A stretch of 50,354 bases of DNA from the sequence record MH051911. One strand, 5' to 3'. Both the position numbers and the translations under genes were made by a program. The stretch comes from Enterobacteria phage vB_EcoS_IME18. Of this stretch, positions 7,826-49,716 are shown in pieces. The notes under the pieces are model-generated. The model saw only the letters and a list, made by a program, of their open reading frames with translations, ran no database searches and was not told where the DNA came from. Each line of letters opens with the position of its first letter. The first letter of the stretch is position 1.

Positions 7826-7885
7826 TTCGATTTTCTCTCTTCGTTGTCGATGAGGTAACTATATCAAATCACCCCATCGACGTTT

Positions 7886-7900
7886 TAGCAATTCGTGCTA
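7886..7900 (-). promoter_or_regulatory. palindromic box TAGCA-N5-TGCTA (promoter-associated)
   Basis: TAGCAATTCGTGCTA; on minus strand TATAGT lies exactly 22 nt downstream (7859-7864); overlaps stop codon of kinase gene. Confidence 0.6.
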
Positions 7901-8470
7901 TTTATTGATGAACGTGGCGGCTATGTGCTGAGCGGTAATTTCTGGATGACCTTCGACAGAAAAGAAGTCACATTCCTGATAACCGTTAACCCCGATCATG
8001 TAGTCAAGATAGATATAGTCGCGGCTGTCGTTATCAAAGCTGCAACCTTTGCGATGTATGCGGCATAGCTTGACCTGGATATCACCTTCAATCATTTGCA
8101 AGATCTCATCTTTGAATCCACCATCAGTAAATACCGAAAGGGAGTGCGACTCTTTCACCTTGCTTTCCGCTCGCATACCGAAAAAGCGATTGCCGAATTG
8201 CGGCTTGATGACCTCTTCACTAATCCAGATCATAAACTGGCGTGGGCTTTTACCGTTCAGGATTGATGCTGGCTCTTCTTTATATCGACGGTCCTCATAC
8301 AAGAACATGAAATACTCGTAGTTAGCTTCACCCAGGATTGCTCGGGCAATCTCAAACATTGGCGCTTTGAAGCTGCGCAAGGCTACGTGATCGTAAGTGT
8401 CAGCAAGGATGCATCCGATAGTGTCTTTTCCCGCTCCAGGTGCGCCGTTTAAAATGATAGCTGTTTTCAT
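7898..8470 (-). CDS. P-loop kinase (polynucleotide kinase-like or dNMP kinase-like)
   Basis: Walker A GAPGAGKDT at N-terminus; LNGKSP motif; adjacent to PNK-type phosphatase gene. Confidence 0.65.
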   Translation of the reverse strand: MKTAIILNGAPGAGKDTIGCILADTYDHVALRSFKAPMFEIARAILGEANYEYFMFLYEDRRYKEEPASILNGKSPRQFMIWISEEVIKPQFGNRFFGMRAESKVKESHSLSVFTDGGFKDEILQMIEGDIQVKLCRIHRKGCSFDNDSRDYIYLDYMIGVNGYQECDFFSVEGHPEITAQHIAATFINK

Positions 8471-8578
8471 GTTAGTATCTCCCTAAAAATAATTTTGCCA
8501 CATTGATGATAGTGTGATTGATGATTAACAGGATGATAACCGTCAATACCGGATGTGCTGCAATAAATTCGTACAGGT

Positions 8579-9190
8579 TCACTTCAATAACTCCTTGCAC
8601 TTAATACATATTTTATCGCCAAATGGCGGTAGCGGCTCAGATGGTTCATGATTGCAAACCTCATCTACGCCATGAGATTTTAAATGATCGTGAATTTTAT
8701 CGCCATAGTCAACTACGGCATACGTTGTTATTCCAAGCGAGCGGAATAATGGAATAATCTGCGGTGAGTCATCCCAAGCTGCCAGGATGTTCTCAATACC
8801 GATCGCGCGCACCGCCTCTTCTTTCATTACCGTGTCTTTGCGGTTGTCGGTGTGCGGCCTCATGACCAAGTAATCATATCGAGCGCCGTGATGCTTAAGC
8901 CATAACTCAGATGCGTAACGCACCTCATCACTTCGCCCGGTTAAAATTATTACATGATATCCAGCGGCAAACATAGAGTTCATCACATCGATCGTGCTTT
9001 GGATAGGGTTGTCAAATATTGCCGAGCGGTTAAACTCGGACCAGCTTTCAGTTAAGTGCAAATCCTTTGTCGGTAGCAGGTGAAGTCGACCAGATCCATC
9101 GCTAAGTGTTCCATCAAAGTCAAAGATTGCTACGCGGCGCGTGCCGAGAAACAGATTGATTGCCTGGCCCCAAATTGTGATTTTATCCAT
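8579..9190 (-). CDS. HAD-family phosphatase resembling polynucleotide kinase 3'-phosphatase domain
   Basis: DxDGT motif FDFDGTL, ILTGRS, DNRKDTVMKEEA resembling T4 Pnk phosphatase segments (from memory). Confidence 0.65.
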   Translation of the reverse strand: MDKITIWGQAINLFLGTRRVAIFDFDGTLSDGSGRLHLLPTKDLHLTESWSEFNRSAIFDNPIQSTIDVMNSMFAAGYHVIILTGRSDEVRYASELWLKHHGARYDYLVMRPHTDNRKDTVMKEEAVRAIGIENILAAWDDSPQIIPLFRSLGITTYAVVDYGDKIHDHLKSHGVDEVCNHEPSEPLPPFGDKICIKCKELLK

Positions 9191-9258
9191 GATTTATTCC
9201 TCTGATTGGTTGCTTAACTCAATGAAGGGCATTCTATCAAATGCCCTTGAGCAAGTTT

Positions 9259-9273
9259 TAGCAATTCGTGCTA
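9259..9273 (-). promoter_or_regulatory. palindromic box TAGCA-N5-TGCTA (promoter-associated)
   Basis: TAGCAATTCGTGCTA; TAGAAT 22 nt downstream on minus strand; hairpin AAGGGCAT/ATGCCCTT in spacer. Confidence 0.6.
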
Positions 9274-9720
9274 TTACCAGCAATCGACCTCGTAGTCAGC
9301 CCAAGCGTCAAAATCACTTTGGCAGAATGTGCCGCTATAATTTTCCATCATTTCATCGATCAGGAAGTAGCACGACTCACCGTTACGATAGAAGTATGAA
9401 TCAGCAACGTTACGCGCCCAGCGCCCAGCATCTTTCTTGCTCATCTTCCAGTATTTCATTGCAATTTTCTTGAATGCGCGAACAACGCGTTTGCGGATCT
9501 TTATATGCTTGTACACAGCGTTGCAGCCGTAGGCCATATATTCGTTATCGCCAAGATTCTGCATAATGTACGGATTTACTTCTCTTGACGTAATCATCAG
9601 ATCGCCATCGCCGCGACGCTCATCATAAATACTTGCTGTCATGTAGTGACCTCTGAACATTCCGATGCCGTGAAGAGTGTATTCATCGTTAGGCGTTTCA
9701 ATGCAAATTAAGTGTTTCAT
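9274..9720 (-). CDS. hypothetical protein
   Basis: Start reassigned to ATG 9718-9720 with SD GAGGAAG; 148 aa. Confidence 0.5.
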   Translation of the reverse strand: MKHLICIETPNDEYTLHGIGMFRGHYMTASIYDERRGDGDLMITSREVNPYIMQNLGDNEYMAYGCNAVYKHIKIRKRVVRAFKKIAMKYWKMSKKDAGRWARNVADSYFYRNGESCYFLIDEMMENYSGTFCQSDFDAWADYEVDCW

Positions 9721-9777
9721 TAGTGCTTCCTCGTTTGTTGGTGTAGGGGAATCATAGCGCATTCCCCTTGATAGGTT

Positions 9778-9996
9778 TTAGCAATTCGTGCTATTCGTTT
9801 TAATAGTAATGCAAAAATAATTTTTTAAGCACGTCACCACGCGCGCTGAATCGACTTGTGGGAGCCTTAAAACCTCGCTGACCAATTGCACTGCCGACAC
9901 CTCAGATTTGTAGTAGTGGGCGATTCTGGAGCTATTTGGGCGCATTCCTTCCACTGCGTCGCGTGCTGCATCTTCTGCTGTCATGATAGTAGCCAT
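9778..9996 (-). CDS. questionable ORF, hypothetical
   Basis: 72-aa ORF whose 3' end reads through the palindromic box; weak SD; may be non-coding. Confidence 0.25.
   Translation of the reverse strand: MATIMTAEDAARDAVEGMRPNSSRIAHYYKSEVSAVQLVSEVLRLPQVDSARVVTCLKNYFCITIKTNSTNC
9779..9793 (-). promoter_or_regulatory. palindromic box TAGCA-N5-TGCTA (promoter-associated)
   Basis: TAGCAATTCGTGCTA; TATGAT 22 nt downstream on minus strand. Confidence 0.55.
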
Positions 9997-10103
9997 AAAA
10001 CACCCTTAAGAGATAATGTCAGGATCAGGAGGCAAAATAGCAACTCCTGAAATGATGGCGGCTCGTTATTCCAGTTAGAAAAGTCTGGCATAGTTCTTTC
10101 TCC

Positions 10104-10137
10104 AAAAGAAAGGGGAACCGCTCAGAGCCGATTCCCC
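10104..10137 (-). terminator. intrinsic terminator
   Basis: Stem GGGGAA/TTCCCC with A-rich run upstream on plus (U-rich on minus transcript); downstream of gene 10145..10783. Confidence 0.45.
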
Positions 10138-10144
10138 GTTAAAA

Positions 10145-11257: not shown

Positions 11258-11325
11258 AGCTGATTCCTCTGATTGGTTGCTCTGCTTCAATAAGGCCACT
11301 ATATCAAATGGCCTTGCGGAAGGTT

Positions 11326-11340
11326 TAGCAATTCGTGCTA
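11326..11340 (-). promoter_or_regulatory. palindromic box TAGCA-N5-TGCTA (promoter-associated)
   Basis: TAGCAATTCGTGCTA; TATAGT 22 nt downstream on minus strand. Confidence 0.6.
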
Positions 11341-11487
11341 TCGTTTAACGCACATTGTTTTAACTTCGTACCCGAACGGCTTATTCTCTGCAATTACTTC
11401 CCGCGCCTTGTTGCATGATTGCTGACTTTCCATGTATACGTGATCAGGCCCGGTACTCATCAAGATAATCAAGATCCACGCAGCCAT
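11338..11487 (-). CDS. hypothetical small protein (49 aa) with hydrophobic N-terminus
   Basis: ATG overlaps upstream stop (TAATG); stop TAG lies inside box; not in ORF track. Confidence 0.4.
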   Translation of the reverse strand: MAAWILIILMSTGPDHVYMESQQSCNKAREVIAENKPFGYEVKTMCVKR

Positions 11488-11993: not shown

Positions 11994-12051
11994 GATGCTT
12001 TCCTCTTAGTGGTTTATGCGGGGATTATACCATTCAGGACAAATCCCCTTT

Positions 12052-12067
12052 TAACAATTCGTTCTTA
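12052..12067 (-). promoter_or_regulatory. degenerate palindromic box with consensus -10
   Basis: TAACAATTCGTTCTTA; on minus strand TATAAT exactly 22 nt downstream. Confidence 0.5.
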
Positions 12068-12553: not shown

Positions 12554-12612
12554 GCTATCGTCCTCGTTCGTTGTCGATGGGGTTACTATATCGCAACCCC
12601 TGAGTTGAGTTT

Positions 12613-12627
12613 TAACAAAAAGTGCTA
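12613..12627 (-). promoter_or_regulatory. palindromic box (promoter-associated)
   Basis: TAACAAAAAGTGCTA; TATAGT 22 nt downstream on minus strand. Confidence 0.6.
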
Positions 12628-12816
12628 TTCTTTAATTTCGAAGCAATCGGTGTCTTCGTCGAATATCCAGGGGTCGCCGTTATCATCAAGTAATGAGATA
12701 TTCCCGAAGCTGGTTAGCGATGCACTATAAGGCTTGTCAACGGTAAAGCACTCTTTAACTTCCTCGTAATCACTGCCTTTGAATACTGCAATCATTTGGT
12801 GCATAAAATCAGCCAT
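12625..12816 (-). CDS. hypothetical protein
   Basis: 63-aa ORF. Confidence 0.4.
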   Translation of the reverse strand: MADFMHQMIAVFKGSDYEEVKECFTVDKPYSASLTSFGNISLLDDNGDPWIFDEDTDCFEIKE

Positions 12817-13600: not shown

Positions 13601-13666
13601 GGTGATTCCTCTGATTGGCATCTCGTTTCAATGGTGTAACTATATCAAGATACCCCGATCCGGTTT

Positions 13667-13681
13667 TAACAATTCGTGCTA
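13667..13681 (-). promoter_or_regulatory. palindromic box (promoter-associated)
   Basis: TAACAATTCGTGCTA; TATAGT 22 nt downstream on minus strand. Confidence 0.6.
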
Positions 13682-14149
13682 TTTGGTGAGATATTTCACA
13701 CGGCTTCCGGCAGTCTCATTCCAGCCATCCTCAAAGAATACGCTATAGCAAGTTGTCGAACGCTGGCGAACCTTCGACACAGTGCGCCACACTTTACGGC
13801 CCGAGTAACCAGTCAGCACACGCATCCCTGGCAACAACTCACCAGACTTTCTCACCTTAATGGCAACATCAGCATCAAGCTCGAACGACTCAAGATAGAC
13901 CGGGTTAATCATATTGCACATGCGGCGCTCTTCGTGCTCATCTGCCCACTCGCAGCCATTGTTCGTCTTGATAGCTCCAATGAAGCAACCCAGTTTTTCA
14001 GTAAGTGAGCCTGCGCGGTATGAGTTGATATCGATGACCGTGTAATGGCTATACATATGCCAGTGCAATCCGGTTTTGTGCTCAAACGCGAAGAATGACA
14101 TTTCGCCATCAACCTCATCTTTAGCCAGAAATACGGTAATTGTCGTCAT
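13679..14149 (-). CDS. hypothetical protein
   Basis: 156-aa ORF; stop TAG inside box. Confidence 0.55.
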   Translation of the reverse strand: MTTITVFLAKDEVDGEMSFFAFEHKTGLHWHMYSHYTVIDINSYRAGSLTEKLGCFIGAIKTNNGCEWADEHEERRMCNMINPVYLESFELDADVAIKVRKSGELLPGMRVLTGYSGRKVWRTVSKVRQRSTTCYSVFFEDGWNETAGSRVKYLTK

Positions 14150-14346: not shown

Positions 14347-14406
14347 CTTTGTTTCCTCTGTATCGTGTCGATGAAAAGATAATACCCGATCCGCTCGACC
14401 GGGATT

Positions 14407-14421
14407 TAACAAAAAGTGCTA
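14407..14421 (-). promoter_or_regulatory. palindromic box (promoter-associated)
   Basis: TAACAAAAAGTGCTA; TATTAT 22 nt downstream on minus strand. Confidence 0.55.
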
Positions 14422-14679
14422 TTTCATCAAAGTGAAGCAGCGAATTTTATTTGGCTTGAATAGGAATAGCTGGATGCCTTGCACCTTACCAAGACTTATC
14501 ATCTCTACGCCAAACTGTTTACGCACATACCGAACCAGCTCATCAGCTGGCGAACTCATCTGTAGGCCGAGTCTATAGAAGCCGACGAACCCGAATGTCT
14601 CGGGGTTAAGCTGGAATGCTTCGCCTGGATTTAGTTGCATCAATACACCTTTCAGGGCGTCATGATTAATCTTGCTCAT
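14419..14679 (-). CDS. hypothetical protein
   Basis: Start chosen at ATG 14677-14679 with SD AAGGAG spacer 8. Confidence 0.45.
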   Translation of the reverse strand: MSKINHDALKGVLMQLNPGEAFQLNPETFGFVGFYRLGLQMSSPADELVRYVRKQFGVEMISLGKVQGIQLFLFKPNKIRCFTLMK

Positions 14680-14691: not shown

Positions 14692-15207
14692 TTACAATCC
14701 ACATTTCTCAATATGCGCTTTCATCTGGCGCACGATCTCATTTACATCACGAACCATTAACTCGCTATCGCCCAGCTTGCTAACATCAACGTCAAACGAA
14801 TCGAGGCAATCAGTCAGGCTAACTTTCTTCCGGCTGCGGCGCTTCTTCACCGGAACCTCTTCGTCTGTAACGATAACGGTTATCATCGTGATTGCCGCGT
14901 CATTCCGGCCTACCTTCACCTTTGCCACCTTGCCATACTTACAGAAGTGCCTGGTAATGATCGGAGTGATGAAAGCGGACTTGAATCGCTTCTCTACCTC
15001 CCCCTGGTTCTGGTCCACCCATCCGGCAGCGGCAGATTCAAGATCGCTATCGCTTACCTCCTGGTCACGGAAGTAGAATCGCGCGGCTTCGAGGGCCATA
15101 TCATCAGCCACGAAAGAGAACTCATTCATGCCTTTGTCGCGATACATTGCATCGCAGGTTAGTCGAATCATATCGGTGATTTTTAATTCCTGATTGGTGT
15201 TGCTCAT
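14692..15207 (-). CDS. hypothetical protein
   Basis: 171-aa ORF, SD AGAGGG; first gene of minus-strand early block. Confidence 0.55.
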   Translation of the reverse strand: MSNTNQELKITDMIRLTCDAMYRDKGMNEFSFVADDMALEAARFYFRDQEVSDSDLESAAAGWVDQNQGEVEKRFKSAFITPIITRHFCKYGKVAKVKVGRNDAAITMITVIVTDEEVPVKKRRSRKKVSLTDCLDSFDVDVSKLGDSELMVRDVNEIVRQMKAHIEKCGL

Positions 15208-15611
15208 AATATACCCTCTTTGTCTATTCGTGTGTAAATGGTGTCATAATGTGTCAACAATTGCCATTGTGACATTGCGATGTAGAGCTGTCAATGCCTG
15301 CGAGCCAATTTTAAGCCGTGTAACATTTGTCTAGCTGTCTAGAGTCACTATAGAAATATATAGCTCTCAAAAAAGTACTGTATATATAAACATGCAGATA
15401 GAAATATGCCAACAGTACGCCAGACAATGTAAGACAACTATACACAACTATTACAATATAATTATCTATATATATAAATAAAAAAAACACTATATATATT
15501 ATATAGATACATATATCTATATGTATATTTAGAGGCGTCACAGTGTGTAATTTTGTCACAAGTGCGATTCTAGACAAATATTACATCCGTGACAAGTTAA
15601 AGTGTAATCGA

Positions 15612-15626
15612 TAGCACTTTTTGCTA
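15612..15626 (+). promoter_or_regulatory. palindromic box TAGCA-N5-TGCTA
   Basis: TAGCACTTTTTGCTA inside control region; no good -10 at +22. Confidence 0.4.
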
Positions 15627-15816
15627 AAAATGGAGATGACTACCAGGCGAACTGGGCAACACCAGATCATCCCTCTCACAATCATTGCAATCTCAGCAAC
15701 AAATCAACCAACTGTTGCACACCATGCAATAATCACGTTTCATCATTTGCAATCAATCGCAATCAGAATTATTCCACCTATTCCGATATTGATGGAATAA
15801 TGAGCAATTATTGGAA

Positions 15817-15831
15817 TAGCATTTTTTGCTA
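15817..15831 (+). promoter_or_regulatory. palindromic box (promoter-associated)
   Basis: TAGCATTTTTTGCTA with TATGGT-like hexamer about 22-23 nt downstream; upstream of 15895 gene. Confidence 0.45.
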
Positions 15832-15894
15832 ATGACTCGATCAGGTTGTCGGGGTATGGTTCTGGCCATCAACCAATCAGAAGAGGAAGCAGCA

Positions 15895-16512: not shown

Positions 16513-16582
16513 GCGGCAAGTCCGCCAAAACAAAACTGATACGATCCCTGTCGCCGCGTGGATTTTTCAAAGCGATCGCAAA

Positions 16583-16597
16583 TAGCACTTTTTGTTA
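16583..16597 (+). promoter_or_regulatory. palindromic box (promoter-associated)
   Basis: TAGCACTTTTTGTTA; CATAAT 22 nt downstream. Confidence 0.6.
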
Positions 16598-16658
16598 AAA
16601 CTCGATCTGTGCGATTTGGCATAATTACCTCATCGAAACGAGATTGAGGAAAAACAAA

Positions 16659-18021: not shown

Positions 18022-18161
18022 TTTATATTCACACTTTCTATACTGGCAAATTTAACAGCGTAAAAAATGTTCGCGTTTACGATAGTCACCAAAAAGCAAT
18101 GATGCAGAAAGTAGTTCTAGGTGGAACAATCAAGGAGTGCCAAGTAATTTCCGAGTACTGA
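18018..18161 (+). CDS. hypothetical small protein (47 aa)
   Basis: ATG overlaps previous stop (ATGA); stop immediately precedes box; not in ORF track. Confidence 0.35.
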   Translation: MIYIHTFYTGKFNSVKNVRVYDSHQKAMMQKVVLGGTIKECQVISEY

Positions 18162-18176
18162 TAGCACTAATTGCTA
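18162..18176 (+). promoter_or_regulatory. palindromic box TAGCA-N5-TGCTA (promoter-associated)
   Basis: TAGCACTAATTGCTA; TATATT-like hexamer 22-23 nt downstream. Confidence 0.55.
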
Positions 18177-18238
18177 AAGACAATAAATAGTGAGTAAGGT
18201 ATATTACTCACACACCAAACAAAACAAAGGAATTAAAA

Positions 18239-18679: not shown

Positions 18680-18680
18680 A

Positions 18681-18695
18681 TAGCACGATTTGTTA
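18681..18695 (+). promoter_or_regulatory. palindromic box (promoter-associated)
   Basis: TAGCACGATTTGTTA; extended -10-like TGATAAAGT with hexamer 22 nt downstream. Confidence 0.6.
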
Positions 18696-18759
18696 ATATT
18701 GCCGTAAGGTCATTTGATAAAGTGACCTTATTCAAGATAACCAATCAGGAGCTAACGCA

Positions 18760-19176
18760 ATGAAATCCATCAAACTTAAATGTACTTCAGCAGATAAAAT
18801 CACAGGATTTGAAGTAAACAACCTGTACAAAGGTCGTGAGCGCTATGATGGCACTCGCGAAGTAAAATTAAAATGCGGAAAGTATTTAAAACTTGAAAAG
18901 CATGATGAATTACAGATTCACGGATCTGATGAAATCTTCTTCGCGAAGTTCACTGAGTTGAAAACAAAGACGCTCAAGTGCACCGGGCTTGACCATCGCA
19001 ATCCGATGAAAAAATCATTCAAACTTGGCAAACGTTACCAGGTGGAAAGCGGTCGCGCTCTCGGCGGCGTAGCTGGTTATATTTTTGATGAGGACGGTTG
19101 CCGCTGGACCTTATTTCGAGAAGATGTTGGTTTTAGTATCGCGGACGGCACAACCTTTGAGGCCAAATACTTATAA
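18760..19176 (+). CDS. hypothetical protein (MKxxKLKCT family paralog)
   Basis: 138-aa ORF; N-terminus resembles 10145 and 12065 products. Confidence 0.5.
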   Translation: MKSIKLKCTSADKITGFEVNNLYKGRERYDGTREVKLKCGKYLKLEKHDELQIHGSDEIFFAKFTELKTKTLKCTGLDHRNPMKKSFKLGKRYQVESGRALGGVAGYIFDEDGCRWTLFREDVGFSIADGTTFEAKYL

Positions 19177-19180
19177 CCAA

Positions 19181-19195
19181 TAGCACTTTTTGCAA
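19181..19195 (+). promoter_or_regulatory. palindromic box (promoter-associated)
   Basis: TAGCACTTTTTGCAA; TATCAT 22 nt downstream. Confidence 0.55.
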
Positions 19196-19252
19196 AACGC
19201 GTGTACCATTGGCGGTGTATCATTTACACCGTCAACTAAGGAGTTTATTGTG

Positions 19253-20821
19253 ATGTTTAATATTAAGCCAAAACTGAATTACCAACAGATTATTGAGATC
19301 GCCAATAGCACTGGAGTTAATCCGGTGGCGATCGCAATTCGTGAAAACAGCTATGGTGACTCAGTTTCATTTTGGCAAGATCCGATCGATATCAATAACG
19401 GCAACGATAAGTTCCCTCTGATTTCGTTAGGTGGCGATAACCTGGTATTCGAATATGCAAAAGCAAAAGCTGAATCAGTCCAGTTCCCGGTTTCATCCGC
19501 GTATGCTCATTTTATCGGTTGCATCTCAGCCGCGATGCTCGGGAAGTTTTGGGTGCAATATCACGGAGAGGAACAGCCGACCGCGCTTTACATGGTAATC
19601 AGCCAGCCACCATCAACAGGTAAGTCCGCTATTAACTCAGCGGCGATAACTCCTATGCGTGCGGAGATTCAGCGACTGAATGAAGAGCGCAAAAAGGAAC
19701 GTATTCGTTTAACCAGTCAGCTACGCCAGGTTGAGAAGGAAATCAAGAATGATCCTAAAGGAAACACGACTGCGGCACTATACGAGGACAAAGAAAAACT
19801 GGAAGAGAAGATCAAAAAGATGGCTGATATTGTTTTTGCTGTATCAGATCCTACACCTGAAGGTCTTGCGAAAGTAGCCGCTGTTCAGGGCCACTTTTCC
19901 GTAATCTCTGATGAGGCAACGGCAATCAATACATTGCTCGGCCTGACTTATGGAGGTTCAGACAAGAAGTCAAACAGTGAACTTATCCTTAAGGCGTGGG
20001 ATAAAAACCACATGGAGGTAGCGCGTTCCAACCAGGACAACAACTTGTCTCTTTGCCCGGTTGGCTCGATCTGCGTAATTGCGCAGGATGAAACAATCAA
20101 AGGTATCATGGACGCAGGCCAACGAGGTATCGGTGTATCTGAGCGCTTCCTGTTAGTTCGCGAGGAACCGCTTTTAGGTACTCGTATTCTTTGTGATGAA
20201 AATGGTGATGCATTGTATAAAGAAGTCGATCGAGGACTGGTTAGCAAATATTACAGACTCGTTCACAACATCATGAAGGAGGAAAACGTTGTTCTCTCTG
20301 TAAGCCGTAATGCTATGCGTGAATTAAACCTTGCGCGTCAGGCGATGGAGCCGGATTTCGCCGCAGGTGGGAAATACTCTCACTCAATGCTACGCGGTCA
20401 TCTCGGCAAGTTCGATAAGCACGCCTTGCGTATTGCTTCAGTTCTCCACACGATCAAGAATTGGGATGGTGAATCACCGAACCGTTCCAACCGTGAGATT
20501 GACCTTGAAACAATGCAGGAAGCAATCATGATCTTCAATGAGCTTTCCAGGACTTATCTGTCGTCTGCCAGCGCTGCCGGGTATGCTGGTGATGAAGCTG
20601 AATCTCGCAAGCTGATTGATGTTATCACTGAGATCGCAAAGAAGAACAAAGGGCGCGCTCCGATTCATAGCATTGTTGCAAAGTGCCGTAACGTTACGCC
20701 GTTCAACGGTCAACAGAAAGTAGCTGAGCGAATCGATAGCCTGCTGATCACGCTCGAAGAGATGAACTACACTTGCCGCATTGATGATATTGTTTTCATC
20801 AATCCTCGACTGATGGGTTAA
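19253..20821 (+). CDS. putative replication-associated ATPase (P-loop-like), function uncertain
   Basis: Start reassigned to ATG 19253 (SD AAGGAG); 522 aa; deviant Walker-A-like QPPSTGKS. Confidence 0.45.
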   Translation: MFNIKPKLNYQQIIEIANSTGVNPVAIAIRENSYGDSVSFWQDPIDINNGNDKFPLISLGGDNLVFEYAKAKAESVQFPVSSAYAHFIGCISAAMLGKFWVQYHGEEQPTALYMVISQPPSTGKSAINSAAITPMRAEIQRLNEERKKERIRLTSQLRQVEKEIKNDPKGNTTAALYEDKEKLEEKIKKMADIVFAVSDPTPEGLAKVAAVQGHFSVISDEATAINTLLGLTYGGSDKKSNSELILKAWDKNHMEVARSNQDNNLSLCPVGSICVIAQDETIKGIMDAGQRGIGVSERFLLVREEPLLGTRILCDENGDALYKEVDRGLVSKYYRLVHNIMKEENVVLSVSRNAMRELNLARQAMEPDFAAGGKYSHSMLRGHLGKFDKHALRIASVLHTIKNWDGESPNRSNREIDLETMQEAIMIFNELSRTYLSSASAAGYAGDEAESRKLIDVITEIAKKNKGRAPIHSIVAKCRNVTPFNGQQKVAERIDSLLITLEEMNYTCRIDDIVFINPRLMG

Positions 20822-21233: not shown

Positions 21234-21345
21234 GCAAGGGTTGTTGAGTCTGTTACTCACTTCAATGAGGGCCAACAACGACAGTGAGCACAATCTTTGC
21301 GATCAGGAAGGAGAGTTACTCCTTCACGTAAAAAGGTACAAATAG
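21145..21345 (+). CDS. hypothetical protein (overlapping, +1 frame relative to 20826..21233)
   Basis: ATG 21145 with SD GGAGAG spacer 7; stop TAG lies in box. Confidence 0.35.
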   Translation: MKICLANVETLIDRNVELCARLQLTKEEFEQGLLSLLLTSMRANNDSEHNLCDQEGELLLHVKRYK

Positions 21346-21357
21346 CACTTTTTGTTA
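21343..21357 (+). promoter_or_regulatory. palindromic box (promoter-associated)
   Basis: TAGCACTTTTTGTTA; TATATT 22 nt downstream. Confidence 0.6.
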
Positions 21358-21432
21358 AAACACCAGATCTCGTATCGGGTATATTTGTTTCATCGAAACG
21401 AAGCGACCCGAAGGAAAGCATTATGGCTAACA

Positions 21433-23050: not shown

Positions 23051-23107
23051 GATATATCCTCTTTGTTTTCGATGTGATTACTATACCCGAATCCCTTCGG
23101 GCGTTTT

Positions 23108-23122
23108 TATCAATTAGTGCGA
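23108..23122 (-). promoter_or_regulatory. degenerate palindromic box (promoter-associated)
   Basis: TATCAATTAGTGCGA; TATAGT 22 nt downstream on minus strand. Confidence 0.45.
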
Positions 23123-24265
23123 CCCTGTCATTTCTGGACGATAGATGAATCGACCGATTTCACCAAACTGCTTATCGTAAACAATTACCGCCGCCTGGCG
23201 ATATGAGCGCCACCCTCCGCGTGCTGCGTATGCATCTTTCGCGCCTAACTGACCGTGTACTTCATCAATACCTAGCGAGTGCTCAGTGATTGTCTGGTGA
23301 TGCCAGTGCCCGCTATGAGTATACACATACTTGCTCTCGCCGAAATCCGATCGGAAATCTGCTGCCATCGCTGCAAGTCGCGTGTCTGCCTTTTTCATAG
23401 TGTGCCCGTGAGTGTATCCCAACAAGGTATTTCCCCAACGAGTCTTATGCAGAATCATAGGACTGACGTCAACGAATACTCGCGGCTCGTCTTCATAGTA
23501 TGCTGCCATTGCTGCGCGTAACCAAATCATCCCGGCCTGGTCGTGGTTTCCTTCGATAACCTGAACTTCGACCTCTTTGTGTTTCGTCAGCATTTTGTCT
23601 ATAGCTCGTCGCACCGATCGAATCGCTACATGCACCAATTTAGCATATCGTGAATCCTGATCAAGAACGTGACCACTTGCCGGGGTAACTGCATCAAGTC
23701 CGTCAGAGTGAAGGAAGTCGCCGCCGATTAACAGAACAGCCTTCTCTGCGTTCGGGGCAATATCGATCGCGTAGTTAAAGAAGTCATTCAGCACTTTTTC
23801 CGCTACGTCTGTAGAGTAGTTCTCTCCGCATTCATGCTTGTGAGCAAGCGCGCCAATGTGAAGATCGAACACCGGGTATAGTGCCAGCTTGCCAATAGCG
23901 GTTGTAAGCCCTTGCGATGTGAGTAGCTCAGTTAGTTTTGCTCGCGGCAAGTCTTCACAGAATGCAATACGCGCTGCTTCCATCATTGCCGCAATCTTCT
24001 CACGGTCCTGATCGGTCTTAACCCATCGCACTACCTCGGTCCCATCTCCGCGAATCATCGTTGATGTGCCTTTTACCATGAATCCTTCCGGTACGTTCTT
24101 AGCAACATGCTCGTTGCCGTGGAAGTGTCCTTCTTTTGCCAATTTTGCGTGGCGAGCCTCAACAGTGCGAATGTGCATACCGTACTTTTCCGCGATCTCG
24201 CGAAGTGTCAGGCCTTTCATGCGTTCTTCGACAAGTTGCTCGGTAGTGATTTTAGCTTGTGACAT
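23114..24265 (-). CDS. HTH domain-containing calcineurin-like metallophosphoesterase
   Basis: N-terminal HTH-like LTLREIAEKYGMHIRTVEARH; metallophosphatase motifs DLH, GDFLHSD, GNHD, GHT, GHWH. Confidence 0.6.
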   Translation of the reverse strand: MSQAKITTEQLVEERMKGLTLREIAEKYGMHIRTVEARHAKLAKEGHFHGNEHVAKNVPEGFMVKGTSTMIRGDGTEVVRWVKTDQDREKIAAMMEAARIAFCEDLPRAKLTELLTSQGLTTAIGKLALYPVFDLHIGALAHKHECGENYSTDVAEKVLNDFFNYAIDIAPNAEKAVLLIGGDFLHSDGLDAVTPASGHVLDQDSRYAKLVHVAIRSVRRAIDKMLTKHKEVEVQVIEGNHDQAGMIWLRAAMAAYYEDEPRVFVDVSPMILHKTRWGNTLLGYTHGHTMKKADTRLAAMAADFRSDFGESKYVYTHSGHWHHQTITEHSLGIDEVHGQLGAKDAYAARGGWRSYRQAAVIVYDKQFGEIGRFIYRPEMTGSH

Positions 24266-24343: not shown

Positions 24344-24745
24344 TCATGCCACAGCCTTTAACCAGAATCCGAGATCTGAAGATTTAAACTCAACAAGTTT
24401 CCCATCAACCTCAAGCATCATGCTGTTTCTACCTGGTGAGTAATAACCTATATGCAACTCCTGTTTCATACCGATGGTGCAAAGCACATTAACGAAGTCA
24501 GGAGGCAACCAATCAGAGAAAGGGATTTGCTTAACCTGCCTCTTTCCGATCCATATGGTCTGGTAGTCATCTAAGTTAATGTTTAAGCCTGGAAGACTTG
24601 TTGTTCTTTGCTGTTTTTCGTTCTCGCTCAATTCTCTTTCCTTCTTCACGATAAAATTCAAGTGATGGGGTAGCTGGCACTCTATGCATTTTTCTCGGCA
24701 TATCTTCCATAAATGAAATCTTTCCGTTTGAGATAATGCTAACAT
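24344..24745 (-). CDS. hypothetical protein (possibly 3' part of a frameshifted gene)
   Basis: 133-aa ORF overlapping 24576..24848 by 170 nt in a different frame; weak SD at own start. Confidence 0.35.
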   Translation of the reverse strand: MLALSQTERFHLWKICREKCIECQLPHHLNFIVKKERELSENEKQQRTTSLPGLNINLDDYQTIWIGKRQVKQIPFSDWLPPDFVNVLCTIGMKQELHIGYYSPGRNSMMLEVDGKLVEFKSSDLGFWLKAVA

Positions 24746-24848
24746 CCTTTATATCGAAATATTTTGCTATTAGTGCTATATCGTCTGAGATGCCACATTC
24801 CTTTGCGTGCTCCCACACCTCTCGTTTACCTTGCTTTTTTATCAGCAT
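24576..24848 (-). CDS. hypothetical protein (possibly 5' part of a frameshifted gene)
   Basis: Good SD GGAGA at 24848 start; 3' third is Lys/Arg-rich low complexity. Confidence 0.35.
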   Translation of the reverse strand: MLIKKQGKREVWEHAKECGISDDIALIAKYFDIKDVSIISNGKISFMEDMPRKMHRVPATPSLEFYREEGKRIERERKTAKNNKSSRLKH

Positions 24849-25035: not shown

Positions 25036-25095
25036 CTTTTGATTCCTCACTTCGTCTCGATGAAATAACTATACCCGACTTTCGCCGGGTATTTT

Positions 25096-25110
25096 TAGCA
25101 ATTAGTGCTG
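25096..25110 (-). promoter_or_regulatory. palindromic box (promoter-associated)
   Basis: TAGCAATTAGTGCTG; TATAGT 22 nt downstream on minus strand. Confidence 0.55.
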
Positions 25111-25350
25111 TACGATCGTATCGGCTTTAAGTTCCTCTACGTCTTTCTGGATAATTGAAGGCCAACGCTCGATATATTCATTTTTTATCTCATCGAAAGA
25201 CATATCAAGAGAACTAGTAAACTTCCACAGATCGCAACCAATAACATCCTGAGTCAATCCGTTTTGCTCCATAATTTCGCAGCACGTAGCGCGATAAAGA
25301 AGCCATAAACCTTGCTCAGTTAATTTAACAGGAACCATTTTTTCGCTCAT
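25102..25350 (-). CDS. hypothetical protein
   Basis: Start chosen at ATG overlapping Dam stop (ATGA); 82 aa. Confidence 0.45.
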   Translation of the reverse strand: MSEKMVPVKLTEQGLWLLYRATCCEIMEQNGLTQDVIGCDLWKFTSSLDMSFDEIKNEYIERWPSIIQKDVEELKADTIVQH

Positions 25351-26063: not shown

Positions 26064-26118
26064 TTTTATTCCTCTCGTTTTGGTGAGATAATAATGCCAG
26101 ATTCCATCCCGGCAGTTT

Positions 26119-26133
26119 TAACAAAAAGTGCTA
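26119..26133 (-). promoter_or_regulatory. palindromic box (promoter-associated)
   Basis: TAACAAAAAGTGCTA; CATTAT/TATTAT about 22-25 nt downstream on minus strand; upstream of dam. Confidence 0.5.
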
Positions 26134-26547
26134 TTTCATCATTTCGTAAATTGCGATCTTGAATTGCCCGAATCCGTATGCGACGGCAGAGAAGCCACCA
26201 CGCTCCCGGACCTTTCGGAGAAATTCCCTTTGCTTGTCGCTGACTGGTGACGCCTTTCCTTTGCCTGACTTATTAACCCGCTTGAGTTCTATTGCTGCAA
26301 ACGGGTATCGTGAGTTAACACCAATCAGGATAACGAAGTCTGACACTCCTTTAAGTAATCCGGCCTGCTCATCCCTGAGCGCCGATGTGATTGTTTTTTC
26401 ACCTTCATTGACAGTGTGCCAAAATAGAAGGTGAGGAAAATTGTATTTCAGCCAGGACACACAATCCACCTGATGAGCGTCCTCCTTTCGAGTGTCGCTG
26501 GGATCTCGCTCGTAAAACTCTAAATAATCACCTTTGTCTGTAATCAT
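26131..26547 (-). CDS. VRR-NUC domain nuclease
   Basis: PD-(D/E)XK-type segment GVSDFVILIG...AIELKR typical of VRR-NUC; ATGA overlap with helicase stop. Confidence 0.65.
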   Translation of the reverse strand: MITDKGDYLEFYERDPSDTRKEDAHQVDCVSWLKYNFPHLLFWHTVNEGEKTITSALRDEQAGLLKGVSDFVILIGVNSRYPFAAIELKRVNKSGKGKASPVSDKQREFLRKVRERGGFSAVAYGFGQFKIAIYEMMK

Positions 26548-28562: not shown

Positions 28563-28575
28563 GGCTATTAATCCT

Positions 28576-28604
28576 TTGAATCGTTGTAGCGTTTACGCTA
28601 TAAT
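28576..28604 (+). promoter_or_regulatory. sigma70-type promoter (-35 TTGAAT, 17-bp spacer, -10 TATAAT)
   Basis: TTGAAT 28576-28581 and TATAAT 28599-28604; upstream of HTH gene 28656; its -10 overlaps the -10 of the divergent box promoter. Confidence 0.55.
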
Positions 28605-28627
28605 ACACGGCATACAGTAAACGTTTT

Positions 28628-28642
28628 TAGCAAAAAGTGCTA
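28628..28642 (-). promoter_or_regulatory. palindromic box (promoter-associated, divergent)
   Basis: TAGCAAAAAGTGCTA; on minus strand TATTAT 22 nt downstream, upstream of helicase; also sits about 10 bp from RBS of plus gene 28656. Confidence 0.55.
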
Positions 28643-28655
28643 TAGGAGAATTAAG

Positions 28656-29108
28656 ATGAGTATTCAACGCATCGCGGAGTCAACTGGTGAAATCGATAAA
28701 CGTCACATCAATGGTAACAACGGAACTCGACGCGGTAAAGACAAAAAGCCACGACAGCGCTGCGGGTTCTATATTCATAAGGAAGAAACACGCGCCGGAT
28801 TGCGAGCACGACTTGATGCGCTTATCGAATATTATGGTGGCCCTGCGGCATGCGCAAAGGCACTAAAAGTAACAAATCAGACGGTGCAAGGCTGGAAAGA
28901 ACGCAACATGATTTCGTGGCAAGGCGCTGAGGCTGCACATCGCGCTTACCGCCGACAGGGGTGTAAAGGATACCGCGCATCATGGCTGAGATTCGACCTC
29001 AAGTTTGATGGTAACGGCAAGTGCCTTGAGAAGCGATGCAAGAACAAGAAATTCATGCGGGTTGTGAAGAAGGAAGATATCGGAACGACCAATAGCATTT
29101 TTAGTTAA
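28656..29108 (+). CDS. putative HTH DNA-binding regulator (Cro/YdaS-like)
   Basis: Segment GGPAACAKALKVTNQTVQGWKERNMISWQGAEAAH resembles Cro-type HTH; SD AGGAG. Confidence 0.5.
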   Translation: MSIQRIAESTGEIDKRHINGNNGTRRGKDKKPRQRCGFYIHKEETRAGLRARLDALIEYYGGPAACAKALKVTNQTVQGWKERNMISWQGAEAAHRAYRRQGCKGYRASWLRFDLKFDGNGKCLEKRCKNKKFMRVVKKEDIGTTNSIFS

Positions 29109-29169
29109 AACAAACTACGCGTAGCGGGTTAACATCCTTCTACGCGTTTTTTATTTTGGAGATCTGGAA

Positions 29170-30128: not shown

Positions 30129-30169
30129 GGCCATTGCAAGACTCATAGCACAATGATAAAATCAGTGCT

Positions 30170-30184
30170 TAGCAATTCGTGCTA
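30170..30184 (-). promoter_or_regulatory. palindromic box adjacent to tail fibre RBS
   Basis: TAGCAATTCGTGCTA about 20 bp upstream of tail fibre ATG; oriented opposite to that gene; a degenerate forward copy lies at 30146-30160. Confidence 0.4.
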
Positions 30185-30205
30185 TTTACTTAAGGAGTTT
30201 ATACT

Positions 30206-33371: not shown

Positions 33372-33445
33372 TTTAACTTCTCCTGATTGGTTTATGAGGT
33401 GCATTATAACACCTCATTAGTTACTTGTTTAGCTATTTGTGCCGT

Positions 33446-45916: not shown

Positions 45917-45938
45917 GATATTTCTCCTGATTGGTTAA

Positions 45939-45953
45939 TAGCACTTTTTGTTA
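45939..45953 (+). promoter_or_regulatory. palindromic box adjacent to chaperone G RBS
   Basis: TAGCACTTTTTGTTA about 20 bp upstream of G start on opposite strand; TACGAT 22 nt downstream on plus. Confidence 0.4.
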
Positions 45954-45989
45954 AAAGCAAAGAGTGCAAAGTTGATACGATGATTTTAC

Positions 45990-46017
45990 AGAAATGAAGA
46001 AGGGGGCGCAAGCCCCC
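45990..46017 (-). terminator. intrinsic terminator after major tail gene
   Basis: Stem GGGGGC/GCCCCC, loop GCAA, U-rich tract on minus transcript. Confidence 0.6.
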
Positions 46018-46029
46018 TGTGGATATGAT

Positions 46030-48305: not shown

Positions 48306-48349
48306 AATTTACCCCCATAAAAAAAGGCGCTACATGAGCGCCTTGATGA

Positions 48350-48637
48350 TTAATATTCGCCGCCGTCCTCAAGCTCTTTAACGCTTTTGCTATCCCACGG
48401 ATCTGGCTTCGTGATCTTTGCCATTTCAGCGCGGATTTTGCGGTTGGTTGCACTGTCGTCTTTAACTTCGATTTCTTCGCGAGCAATTAAGCAACGCAGG
48501 CCGGGCAAATCAAGAACGGACGCCGGAAGCGTGACCTCTTCATCTGGAAGAACTTTAGCAAAGGAGCCATCTTCAAGACGGAACATCTGAAGAGCTACAC
48601 CAACATTTACGATAACAACAGTTTTTTCTTTAGCCAT
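48350..48637 (-). CDS. hypothetical head-associated protein
   Basis: 95-aa ORF with SD GGAGAAA directly after capsid-gene terminator. Confidence 0.45.
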   Translation of the reverse strand: MAKEKTVVIVNVGVALQMFRLEDGSFAKVLPDEEVTLPASVLDLPGLRCLIAREEIEVKDDSATNRKIRAEMAKITKPDPWDSKSVKELEDGGEY

Positions 48638-48650
48638 TTTGATTTCTCCA

Positions 48651-48679
48651 ATAAAAAAGGGACTAACTAAGTTAGCCCC
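48651..48679 (-). terminator. intrinsic terminator after major capsid gene
   Basis: Stem GGGACTAACT/AGTTAGCCCC with A7 on plus (U-run on minus transcript), immediately followed by next RBS. Confidence 0.6.
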
Positions 48680-48686
48680 TATAATA

Positions 48687-49646
48687 TTACACGCCAGTGA
48701 TTAAGACAATAGTCATCGGGCGATAAATTGTAAGACCAGTACATTTAGAGGTGCAAGGCACTTTAAAGTGCAAGTCTTTCGGCTGTGCTGGCAGCATGTT
48801 AAATGCTTCCGGGATCTCGATGGACATATTCATCGGATTCTTTTCGTACACCAGCACACCTTTAGTTCCAGCGCCGTCGATATCTTCAAGTTCTGCGATA
48901 GAGTCGATTTCGATACCTGAGTTCTGAGACTTGAAATAGTCCAGATAAGACATGGTAGTCTCAGGCATACGAATCGCCAGCACCTTACGCATGGACGGCG
49001 GGATCAGAATGTTGGTAGCTCGGTGCTGGCCTCGAGTAATCGTCTCGATGGTTTCGATCGCCTGAGTCAATTCCGCTTCAGCCGTTTCCGGTTTCTGAGT
49101 TGCGCCATCCATCCACTTACCGGAGGTAATTTTGGTGATGTTCGGATGATTGAACACGGACACAATCTTGTGCGGCGCGGAACCTTTGAACACCAGGCGG
49201 TTAACAAGCTGATCATGAGCCAACTGGCACGCACTTGCCTTACGGGTTGACAGTGGGCGACCAGTTGCCTGACCTGCTTTGATTTCGTCGATTGAGATCA
49301 GATACGCGTTACCCAGACGGAACACCTTGCCAAACTCAGAAGTACCCAGGGCGTCAACCAGCGGAAGATCGTCGGTGTAGTCTGCGATAATCTGAGCCGT
49401 ACCAACCTTGTCAAAGGTCATGTATTCAAACGTCTTATCAGTCGGAGAAAGATCGGTTGTAACCGGGAATACGCGTAAAGCTGAGCCGACCGGGTAGTCT
49501 TCTTCATAGGACTGGCTTTTGATGCGGTGTAGTTCCTGAGCGGTCCAGATACCCATCGTTGCGGCTGCATCCTGTTTTACGCCAGCCTGGATCAGATACA
49601 TTTCAACATTGCTTTTATCTGCTTCATCAAATTTTTTAGTAGTCAT
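48687..49646 (-). CDS. major capsid protein (lambda gpE-like position)
   Basis: 319 aa; SD GGAGAAG; flanked by terminator hairpins on both sides. Confidence 0.7.
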   Translation of the reverse strand: MTTKKFDEADKSNVEMYLIQAGVKQDAAATMGIWTAQELHRIKSQSYEEDYPVGSALRVFPVTTDLSPTDKTFEYMTFDKVGTAQIIADYTDDLPLVDALGTSEFGKVFRLGNAYLISIDEIKAGQATGRPLSTRKASACQLAHDQLVNRLVFKGSAPHKIVSVFNHPNITKITSGKWMDGATQKPETAEAELTQAIETIETITRGQHRATNILIPPSMRKVLAIRMPETTMSYLDYFKSQNSGIEIDSIAELEDIDGAGTKGVLVYEKNPMNMSIEIPEAFNMLPAQPKDLHFKVPCTSKCTGLTIYRPMTIVLITGV

Positions 49647-49664
49647 GATTACTTCTCCGTAGTT

Positions 49665-49695
49665 AATAAAAAAGCCGTGATTATGTTCACGGCTT
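49665..49695 (-). terminator. intrinsic terminator between junction gene and capsid gene
   Basis: Stem AAGCCGTGA/TCACGGCTT, loop TTATGT, A-run on plus (U-run on minus transcript). Confidence 0.6.
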
Positions 49696-49701
49696 CAATA
49701 A

Positions 49702-49716
49702 TAGCACTTTTTGTTA
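49702..49716 (+). promoter_or_regulatory. palindromic box between decoration-like and capsid genes
   Basis: TAGCACTTTTTGTTA; plus orientation inside minus-strand operon; TATGCA-like hexamer 22 nt downstream. Confidence 0.4.

Follow-up and report, generated by a model that had tools for sequence, protein, structure and literature searches.

Repeated boxes in Enterobacteria phage vB_EcoS_IME18 as probable marboxes of class II promoters

Results

The stretch of DNA analysed in this work (hereafter the window) consists of 50,354 nucleotides (nt) of Enterobacteria phage vB_EcoS_IME18 (IME18; sequence record MH051911), in which a short box is repeated, mostly between genes. The box is probably a near-optimal marbox, and about 20 of its copies probably form class II promoters of the micF type for the host activators MarA, SoxS, and Rob (or RamA). 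The match in sequence, the orientation, the spacing, and the conservation throughout the family are observed; from these, we infer the start sites, the binding and the activation by these host factors, and the sign and the size of the effect. The marbox (also known as soxbox or robbox) is an asymmetric site of 20 base pairs (bp) for monomers of the AraC-family activators MarA, SoxS, and Rob, and of RamA in Klebsiella and Salmonella. The function of the marbox is orientation- and distance-dependent.

Phages and box copies

An 8-kilobase (kb) stretch of the IME18 DNA is approximately 91% identical to Escherichia phage T1 and is matched by 141 phage records. By its sequence, IME18 is a T1-like virus (Tunavirus, Drexlerviridae). 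The IME18 record is reverse-complemented and permuted in comparison with the T1 record. The box copies were collected from seven annotated Drexlerviridae (IME18, T1, TLS, Klebsiella KLPN1, Cronobacter ESP2949-1, AKS96, and Yersinia YP10S2), which gave 113 copies, and a scan of viral contigs enlarged the family set to 405 unique copies. The box positions are numbered A1 to A19, and the 20-mer form was used for the comparison with the marbox. The promoter-like subset consists of the 314 family copies that have A40 and T44. The hairpin statistics were obtained from 138 diverged copies and the folding energies from the 113-copy set. The weight matrix for the marbox was trained only on 70 in vivo MarA, SoxS, Rob, and RamA sites that had been identified by chromatin immunoprecipitation sequencing (ChIP-seq) in Salmonella (PMC10268841).

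Occurrence and sequence of the box

The pattern TAGCA-N5-TGYTA gave 28 strand hits in the window that correspond to 19 distinct sites, compared with 0.17 +/- 0.55 hits in shuffled sequences, and 0 of 100 shuffles reached 28. The 19-mer ATAGCACNNNTTGYTAAAA matched 17, 21, and 27 places in the window at no more than one, two, and three mismatches, where shuffles gave 0, 0, and approximately 1. A preliminary description made from the sequence alone had counted 23 copies. That count and the coordinates given for the copies are about right, with 19 sites under the strict pattern and approximately 27 at looser matching. The copies added to that list are located at 6052 and, in degenerate form, at 12049, 23105, 24761, 33427, 39750, and 41998.

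Nearly all copies lie between genes or overlap a gene end and are co-directional with the next gene, as had been described. The TAG within the box serves as the stop codon of the upstream gene in about nine copies in the window, and start codons are found 70-85 nt from the box start.

The phage 20-mer is ATAGCAC(T/G)(A/T)(A/T)TTG(C/T)TAAA(A/C)N. Variation is confined to positions 8, 9, 10, 14, 19, and 20, and the invariant positions include G4, C5, C7, and G13. The two halves of the box are consistently unequal. G4 is present in 403 of the 405 copies, while its dyad partner at position 14 is C in 231 and T in 164; C7 faces T11 in the dyad, and the A-runs at both flanks of the box are on the same strand. 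The earlier picture of a palindromic, inverted-repeat operator is therefore not retained because the box is asymmetric and varies only where the marbox consensus has N, W, or Y. The family set shows the same box in related phage genomes. It is essentially unchanged in nine family genomes, for which Escherichia, Klebsiella, Cronobacter, Yersinia, Vibrio, and Pseudomonas are on record as hosts.

Promoter architecture

The preliminary description had placed a hexamer at a fixed distance of 22 nt from the box, and this spacing was recovered. A TAnnnT hexamer starts at position 39, that is 22 nt after TGYTA, in 19-21 copies in the window. Of the 405 family copies, 249 have a hexamer start at position 39, compared with 14 at position 38 and 23 at position 40. 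The hexamers vary as true -10 elements do, with positions 2 and 6 kept and the rest free. In the promoter-like subset, G37 (the G of the extended -10 TG) is present in 267 of the 314 copies and A51 in 277, mostly after C, which gives a CA(+1) signature 7 nt past the hexamer. The family signature can be written as T36-G37-n-T39-A40-t-a-a-T44-N6-C50-A51. The box units were treated as promoters because this signature is that of an extended -10 sigma-70 promoter with the start 7 nt after the hexamer. Transcription would thus start at the CA located 7 nt downstream of the hexamer.

The -35 region of the box promoters reads TAAAAC and no -35 element is recognisable there. The units are predicted promoters with a good and often extended -10 and without a -35, as had been proposed. 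Counted from a start 7 nt past the hexamer, the 20-mer spans -50 to -31, and every promoter-associated copy is in the forward orientation. The class II activator position that had been suggested for the box also holds, where the pseudo-palindrome is centred at -42 and the 20-bp site at approximately -41.

Identification of the box as a marbox

The published marbox consensus is AYNGCACNNWNNRYYAAAYN (PMC2064960). The form derived from ChIP data is gcannwwntgnnaaa, which is non-palindromic and oriented (PMC12052159). Searching the window with AYnGCACnnWnnRYYAAAYn returned 22 sites at no more than one mismatch, four of them perfect, compared with approximately 0.7 in shuffles, and 351 of the 405 family copies match the consensus at the same threshold. 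The phage 20-mer agrees at all specified consensus positions except position 19, where A is more common than C, as is also the case at micF. The positions that vary in the phages (8, 9, 10, 14, 19, and 20) coincide with those that the consensus gives as N, W, or Y. With the ChIP matrix, nearly all of the 22 best-scoring places in the window are box copies, which score 15.2-18.1 bits, compared with a maximum of 17.9 and a median of 10.8 bits among the training sites. A RamA/SoxS ChIP-seq site of Salmonella (table of PMC10268841) has exactly the sequence of the 15-mer at 19183-19197 (GCACTTTTTGCAAAA).

The geometry of the phage units is also that of a known promoter. The micF promoter of E. coli K-12, as read from its sequence, consists of ACAGCACTGAATGTCAAAAC followed by 18 bp and then TAGAAT, and the gap between marbox and hexamer in the phage is likewise 18 bp. 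The micF promoter is a class II promoter that has been solved by cryo-electron microscopy with Rob, SoxS, and RamA (PMC9178005, PMC8811837, PMC9638938). Rob contacts -47G and -45A of GCAC at micF, and the CAAA element overlaps the -35 region from where sigma region 4 is displaced (PMC9178005). When the phage box is numbered from the inferred start, G4 is at -47 and A6 is at -45. RamA has been placed at approximately -41 on micF (PMC8811837), the soxbox centre at -41.5 (PMC9638938), and class II promoters are reported to be without a recognisable -35 (PMC10268841). The phage units and micF share a forward 20-bp marbox with GCAC and (C/T)AAA, a 3' end of AAAAC, the 18-bp gap, a site centre at approximately -41, and the lack of a usable -35. 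The phage sites differ from micF in being closer to the consensus, in being repeated about 20 times within 50 kb, and in mostly having the extended -10 TG. They also differ in that the spacer often contains a strong hairpin, the site overlaps the upstream stop codon, and the phage site is known from its sequence alone.

A second known geometry is found at an orphan copy. Class I promoters have a reversed marbox that is located farther upstream (PMC12052159). No -10 follows the copy at 15611-15630 on the strand of the box; read from the opposite strand, the copy is a marbox in reverse orientation that stands 15 bp upstream of TTGTCA-17-TAGAAT. For comparison, the E. coli mar promoter, as read from its sequence, has a gap of 16 bp and fpr one of 15 bp (PMC9638938). 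The phage box and the mar marbox in reverse complement (ATGCCACGTTTTGCTAAATC) agree at 16 of 20 positions, and T1 has the same reversed arrangement as IME18. The phage promoter thus resembles the marRAB and fpr promoters in having a reversed marbox 15-16 bp upstream of a -35 hexamer; it differs from them in being a single case, common to IME18 and T1, and in being a promoter by consensus match only. Judged by sequence, two separate known marbox geometries (the micF type and the mar/fpr type) are reproduced in IME18.

Proposed mechanism and host binders

In the proposed mechanism, the forward marbox would cover the -35 region with GCAC at approximately -47 to -44 and TAAA at approximately -36 to -33, and exactly 18 bp separate it from the sigma-70 -10, usually with an extended -10 TG. 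The activator on the DNA would substitute for the -35 contact by touching sigma region 4 as well as the alpha subunit's C-terminal domain. Such a substitution would explain why there is no -35, why the spacing is strict, and why the 18-bp spacer is free for terminator-like hairpins. The reversed copy located 15 bp upstream of a canonical -35 would act as at mar and fpr.

The preliminary description had listed a host factor as an option among the binders, and this option is favoured by the marbox match. Host proteins of the MarA/SoxS/Rob type are most likely the binders. The binder at the start of infection would most likely be the abundant and constitutive Rob, to which MarA, SoxS, or RamA would add under stress. 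Rob is reported to be constitutive and to have a higher affinity for DNA than MarA or SoxS (PMC10268841). Being constitutive, Rob would be present at the moment of injection, and it would avoid the timing problem of a phage-made activator because many boxes precede small putative early genes on both genome arms. A tblastn search with MarA against nine family genomes found no phage homologue (best E 1.4), and a Pfam search of 20 early open reading frames found no AraC-type domain.

Several points weigh against activation by these host proteins. In unstressed cells, Rob is reportedly for the most part sequestered (PMC10268841), and MarA and SoxS are scarce without stress, so that dependence on them is not obvious for a phage that thrives in plain broth. 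Promoters with TGnTATAAT can fire without an activator, and the box may then be only a modulator or booster. Phages recorded on Vibrio cholerae and Pseudomonas aeruginosa, whose genomes have 45% G+C in both cases, also carry the box. A3, T11, and T12 are invariant even though the marbox consensus leaves them free, and either an optimum site or a second binder is possible. The copies at 6051, 33426, and 49701 are without a -10 at the right place and are unexplained by promoter activation. These copies and the antisense copy at 45938-45988 may be roadblocks, antisense promoters, or titration sites.

The Cro-like regulator as an alternative binder

The strongest alternative, which we nevertheless consider unlikely, is that the box is the operator of the Cro-fold regulator encoded at 28656..29108 (+; the homologue of T1 ST23), a dimer of which would activate from -42 or shut the promoters off later. 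This product had been named as a candidate binder in the preliminary description. It weakly matches Pfam P22_Cro, is annotated as 'transcriptional regulator' in PHROGs, and retrieves Cro proteins in a profile search of PDB (E 7e-4). Its AlphaFold model (pLDDT, the predicted local distance difference test, of 83) exhibits an all-alpha Cro core, a basic N-terminal arm, and a small C-terminal domain, and a Foldseek search with the model found Xfaso1 Cro (3bd1, TM 0.73) and N15 Cro. The all-alpha Cro fold, the half-sites TAGCA and TGCTA that are 10 bp apart centre to centre, and the occurrence of the protein in 823 phage records all favour such an operator. The second protein that had been proposed, a putative helix-turn-helix protein at 23114..24265, belongs instead to a DNA repair exonuclease family (phrog_704).

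The arrangement around the regulator gene also speaks for the operator. In all seven genomes examined, the regulator gene has a near-consensus sigma-70 promoter, and the -10 of this promoter and that of the divergent helicase box promoter (TATTAT in IME18) overlap back to back. The two promoters should therefore exclude each other. The box, which is reversed with respect to the regulator gene, is located at approximately +15 to +33 of the regulator transcript, where it abuts the Shine-Dalgarno sequence. This divergent layout looks like a switch. The placement of the box in the regulator leader, on the other hand, follows automatically from the short divergent intergenic region.

The recognition helix of the regulator differs at most exposed positions between subfamilies (QTVQGWKER, KTVWGWKER, QVVQQWRKR, GTVRHWMLR), yet the box is invariant. 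The regulator stands as a Cro-fold DNA-binding candidate and as the only helix-turn-helix protein of the phage, but the variation of its recognition helix speaks against it as the binder of a box that does not vary. The conserved asymmetry of the box, with G4 fixed against a partner that is C or T and C7 facing T11, is also ill-suited to a symmetric dimer, and the equal half-sites and matching helix-turn-helix protein that define a dimeric operator of the Cro/cI type were not found for the box. Since boxes precede many putative early genes, the regulator would be needed before it is made. The match with the marbox in sequence, orientation, and two spacings would furthermore have to be a coincidence. 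The lambda cI protein at OR2 that activates PRM provides the closest comparison for the operator, where the site centre is also near -42 by sigma region 4 and a phage Cro-fold protein is also encoded nearby; the IME18 box differs in being asymmetric and in matching a monomer site, and the recognition helix of the IME18 protein is not conserved. It is possible that the regulator acts alongside host activators on the marboxes, as a later competitor for the same DNA.

Residues 1-35 of the regulator (28656-28760) contain an invariant basic stretch, DKRxINGNNGTRRGxDxKxR, that is predicted to be disordered and is far better conserved than the recognition helix.

RNA polymerase alone or a repressor roadblock

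It is quite improbable that the box is read by RNA polymerase alone, either as a UP-like element or as a displaced -35 (TTGYTA), or that it is a repressor roadblock ('stoperator'). The A/T-rich flanks of the box and the TTG within it are in favour of reading by the polymerase, and UP-like, enhancer-binding, and stoperator roles have been proposed by the TLS authors (PMC11447400). A roadblock would account better than a promoter for the copies by the ribosome binding sites of terS and the regulator gene and for those that are antisense in the late region. A roadblock, however, needs no fixed distance to the -10, and no binder has been proposed for a stoperator.

A UP element is an A/T-rich tract at -59 to -38, and spacers of the sigma-70 type are 16-18 bp long. 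UP elements are without invariant G/C positions, whereas the box has invariant G4, C5, C7, and G13 and reaches -31; the UP element was rejected as an identity of the box. TTGYTA as a -35 was rejected as well because its 22-bp spacer is outside the range of 16-18 bp, and it is AAAACN that stands 17 bp upstream of the -10.

Spacer hairpins and a role of the box in RNA

The hairpins that had been noticed in the spacers are real. Perfect stems of at least 7 bp are present in 49 of the 138 diverged copies, compared with approximately 3 expected, and the mean folding energy of the spacers is -11.1 kcal/mol, compared with -4.8 kcal/mol in shuffles. The hairpins are located at positions 20-56 after the box, for example at 9224-9250, 11291-11316, 25068-25090, and 7846-7881. 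Two types were identified. Type 1 is centred at position 30.5 and has a G+C-rich stem that often has a GAAA, GCAA, or TTCG loop and ends at the -10; some type 1 hairpins are annotated intrinsic terminators in T1 and TLS. Type 2 is centred at position 38.5 and its arms flank the extended -10. The arms differ between copies yet stay complementary. One orthologous pair, at 18161 in the window and 47615 in T1, exhibits a compensatory change, with GTGAGTAA/TTACTCAC in IME18 and GGGAGTAA/TTACTCCC in T1. Among the single mismatches in the stems, 6-7 are G.T and one is A.C, numbers too small to decide on a function at the RNA level; the excess of G.T hints that the hairpins function in sense-strand RNA that results from read-through of the upstream gene. 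We suggest that the 18-bp class II spacer is free of sequence constraint, which would let terminators or 3'-end stabilisers of the upstream gene nest there.

A related alternative, which is the most improbable of those weighed here, is that the box itself acts at the RNA level, where a stem of 5 bp and a loop of 5 nt (UAGCA-CNNNU-UGYUA, of the size of lambda boxB) would recruit an antiterminator or a processing factor ahead of the hairpins. The bias of the stem mismatches towards G.T, the placement of the box immediately behind stop codons and before hairpins, part of them annotated as terminators, and the invariant arginine/lysine-rich N-terminal arm of the regulator would fit this role. G4 also pairs with either C or U at position 14, and the reverse change is never seen. 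The C or T at position 14 is, however, the Y of the marbox consensus. In the comparison with boxB of lambda-type nut sites, the size fits and G-C alternates with G.U at one pair, but zero compensated double changes were found in the stem, and T12A and T2C are uncompensated. A role in RNA also gives no reason for the strict 22-nt spacing to the -10 and for the CA(+1) signature, and the box of the helicase promoter lies in a divergent region that has no co-directional upstream gene.

Other identities considered

A sigma-54 promoter is TGGCAC-N5-TTGCW, with GG-N10-GC spanning one helical turn; the box has AG-N8-GC, which is 2 nt too short and lacks the first G, and is followed by a sigma-70 -10. 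An Lrp site (consensus YAGHAWATTWTDCTR) matches the TTT subtype of the box at 13 of 15 positions and the GAA subtype at only about 11 of 15, and has no logic of orientation or spacing; Lrp was dropped for the marbox because the marbox fits all subtypes. ArcA, Fis, CRP, FNR, and the MotA box do not fit. The middle promoters of T4 are similar to the phage units in that a conserved upstream box replaces the -35 next to a host sigma-70 -10. They differ in that the centre of the MotA box is at -30, that this box depends on MotA and AsiA, both made by the phage, and that the two boxes are unlike in sequence and position. No homologues of MotA or AsiA are evident in IME18.

Comparison with the published repeat

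The re-annotation of TLS in 2024 reported a direct repeat of 21 nt, aaATAGCACnnnTTGnTAAAA, at 21 places, pointing the same way as transcription and approximately 76 nt upstream of start codons, with the three subtypes AAA, TTT, and GAA (PMC11447400). The TLS authors noted similar repeats in T1, Rtp, and Rogue1, proposed that the repeats are stoperators, enhancer-binding sites, or UP-like elements, and called their function unexplained (PMC11447400). The IME18 box is the same element as the TLS repeat (DR1-18), as the two agree in consensus, in the three subtypes, in intergenic location, in co-directional orientation, and in the distance of approximately 76 nt to the start codons. The TLS paper differs from this work in that it drew no link to a -10 hexamer or a marbox. 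The repeat has reportedly been noted since the T1 genome paper of 2004. The annotations of this kind in the T1 GenBank record are ribosome binding sites and terminators only.

The literature search found no study of transcription start sites or RNA sequencing in a T1-like phage, and no paper that ties marbox, MarA, SoxS, or Rob to T1-like phages. The repeat itself is known, and none of the papers searched identifies it as a marbox in the micF-type and mar/fpr-type geometries. The preliminary description had not recognised the element as a described promoter class. This has to be revised, since the class is probably that of the class II mar/sox/rob promoters and the repeat has been published for TLS and T1. 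The box promoters of IME18 would join a familiar promoter class as new members from an unexpected source.

The AKS96 record has a promoter annotated at 22079-22113 as 'similar to TTGACA(N23)TATAAT', where the architecture with a long spacer was captured and the box was not recognised.

Implications

Tentatively, and at somewhat less than even confidence, we propose that Drexlerviridae, including the Webervirus phages of Klebsiella that are used in therapy, have handed their early and middle transcription to the host proteins Rob, MarA, SoxS, and RamA via about 20 super-consensus class II marboxes per genome. If so, the efficiency of infection would track the mar/sox/rob/ram state of the host. 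Salicylate, bile salts, paraquat, dipyridyl, and resistance mutations in marR or ramR would boost the phage, and the injected array of high-affinity sites might titrate the activators off the host resistance regulon. If the marbox reading holds, phage productivity would be linked to exposure in the gut to bile, oxidants, and antibiotics. Multidrug-resistant isolates in which MarA or RamA is constitutive would be predicted to be better hosts, which would bear on phage-antibiotic combinations that involve T1-like phages of Klebsiella and E. coli. These phages would clearly exemplify a family of virulent phages whose promoter specificity factor is a stress and drug-resistance regulon of the host, and they would be a source of compact marbox promoters of very high strength, in which the spacer houses terminators. 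The identification of the marbox also gives a cheap and concretely testable hypothesis for a repeat that has long been unexplained.

Box sites in the window

The predicted class II marbox promoters on the minus strand between 7851 and 14422 are as follows. The promoter at 7851..7901 consists of the marbox at 7882-7901 (ATAGCACGAATTGCTAAAAC), TGA and TATAGT at 7858-7863, and a predicted start at 7851. The promoter at 9224..9274 consists of the marbox at 9255-9274 and TGA with TAGAAT at 9231-9236, where the hairpin AAGGGCAT/ATGCCCTT flanks the -10. The promoter at 9744..9794 has its marbox at 9775-9794 and its -10 (TATGAT) at 9751-9756, and that at 11291..11341 has a marbox without mismatches at 11322-11341 and TGA with TATAGT at 11298-11303. 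A degenerate box (TAAGAACGAATTGTTAAAAG) is present at 12017..12067 with TGG and TATAAT (12024-12029) at the canonical spacing. The promoter at 12578..12628 has its marbox at 12609-12628, a -10 TATAGT at 12585-12590, and a CA start; the promoter at 13632..13682 has its marbox at 13663-13682 and TGA with TATAGT at 13639-13644; and the promoter at 14372..14422 has a marbox without mismatches at 14403-14422 and a -10 TATTAT at 14379-14384.

The reversed marbox described above belongs to a putative leftward promoter at 15560..15630 (-), where the marbox at 15611-15630 is forward on the plus strand and TTGTCA-17-TAGAAT runs from 15595 to 15567 after the 15-bp gap. Tandem canonical sigma-70-like promoters are present in the region 15200-15600 (-), namely TTGTCA-17-TAGAAT, TATACA-18-TATAAT, and TTGACA-17-CACAAT with TG. 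They are located at the start of the leftward early arm and are candidate immediate-early promoters for which the box would not be needed.

The sites on the plus strand start with a degenerate box (ATAGCATTTTTTGCTAATGA) at 15816..15866, which is upstream of the first rightward early gene and has a -10 that is weak or shifted by one (TATGGT). Predicted class II marbox promoters follow at 16582..16632 (marbox 16582-16601, TGG and CATAAT 16620-16625), at 18161..18212 (marbox 18161-18180, -10 TATATT shifted by 1 nt, hairpin GTGAGTAA/TTACTCAC), at 18680..18730 (marbox 18680-18699, TGA and TAAAGT 18718-18723), at 19180..19230 (upstream of the helicase-like gene 19190..20821, with the 15-mer GCACTTTTTGCAAAA and a -10 TATCAT), and at 21342..21392 (marbox 21342-21361, -10 TATATT 21380-21385).

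On the minus strand, two variants of the box are located at 23073..23123 (GTCGCACTAATTGATAAAAA; 17.9 bits on the ChIP matrix, a spacer hairpin, and TATAGT at 23080-23085) and at 24729..24779 (ATAGCACTAATAGCAAAATA; TGT and TAGCAT at 24736-24741). The predicted class II marbox promoter at 25061..25111 (-) has its marbox at 25092-25111 and the hairpin ACCCGGC-GAAA-GTCGGGT that ends at the -10 (TATAGT, 25068-25073), and that at 26084..26134 (-) is upstream of the dam methylase gene with the marbox at 26115-26134 and TGG with CATTAT. The helicase operon is preceded by a predicted class II marbox promoter at 28593..28643 (-), where the marbox is at 28624-28643 and the -10 TATTAT at 28600-28605. The promoter of the Cro-like regulator gene at 28575..28655 (+) is a near-consensus sigma-70 promoter, TTGAAT-17-TATAAT. 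A box variant (ATAGCATTTTTAGTTAAAAC) at 29092..29142 (+) overlaps the regulator stop codon upstream of the primase gene, with a -10 TAACAT and a hairpin that is an annotated terminator in T1. The box at 30135..30185 (-; ATAGCACGAATTGCTAAGCA) has TGC and a poor -10 (TATGAG) and points away from the tail fibre gene.

The transcribed leaders share CATCGA(A/C)AACGA at the predicted start (for example at 9190-9224, 11270-11291, 13621-13632, and 18730-18760), and a subset of the leaders shares CCAATCAGAGGA as the Shine-Dalgarno context, which suggests a common leader function.

Copies in unusual positions

A perfect-consensus marbox at 6051..6070 (-) has no -10 and is located approximately 17 nt upstream of the terS start codon, just past a terminator. 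The preceding terminator ends the early arm (region 6020-6100, -), and the box at 6051-6070 may gate transcription into the late genes. Another perfect-consensus marbox (ACGGCACAAATAGCTAAACA) at 33426..33445 (-) lies between the exonuclease VIII and Erf genes and has no clear -10 at the canonical spacing.

The box at 49701..49720 (+) is antisense to late genes and is a reversed marbox when it is read in the direction of the capsid gene. Upstream of the major capsid gene (49640-49720, -), the reversed box is directly followed by an intrinsic terminator, GCCGTGA-ACATAA-TCACGGC with a T-run, and the capsid start codon is within approximately 20 nt after that terminator. This layout of box and terminator is conserved in six genomes, namely IME18, T1 (15049-15140), TLS, YP10S2, Vc1, and Motto. 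A class I-type promoter for the major capsid gene was considered and rejected, as the hit in Vc1 is the stem of the intrinsic terminator.

A predicted class II marbox promoter at 45938..45988 (+), with TGA and TACGAT, is antisense in the tail-gene region and is conserved in T1. The region 45938-46020 (+) contains this box with its good extended -10 (TGATACGAT), antisense between the major tail gene and the tape-measure chaperone genes. The promoter at 45938 runs into the terminator hairpin of the tail genes and could yield a short antisense RNA; its T1 counterpart is located at 18832 (-).

Host records of T1-like sequences

About 20 GenBank records that are named Campylobacter phage contain T1-like sequence, and their host assignment may deserve checking. 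The same applies to the T1-like genomes of 45% G+C that are recorded on Vibrio cholerae and Pseudomonas aeruginosa.

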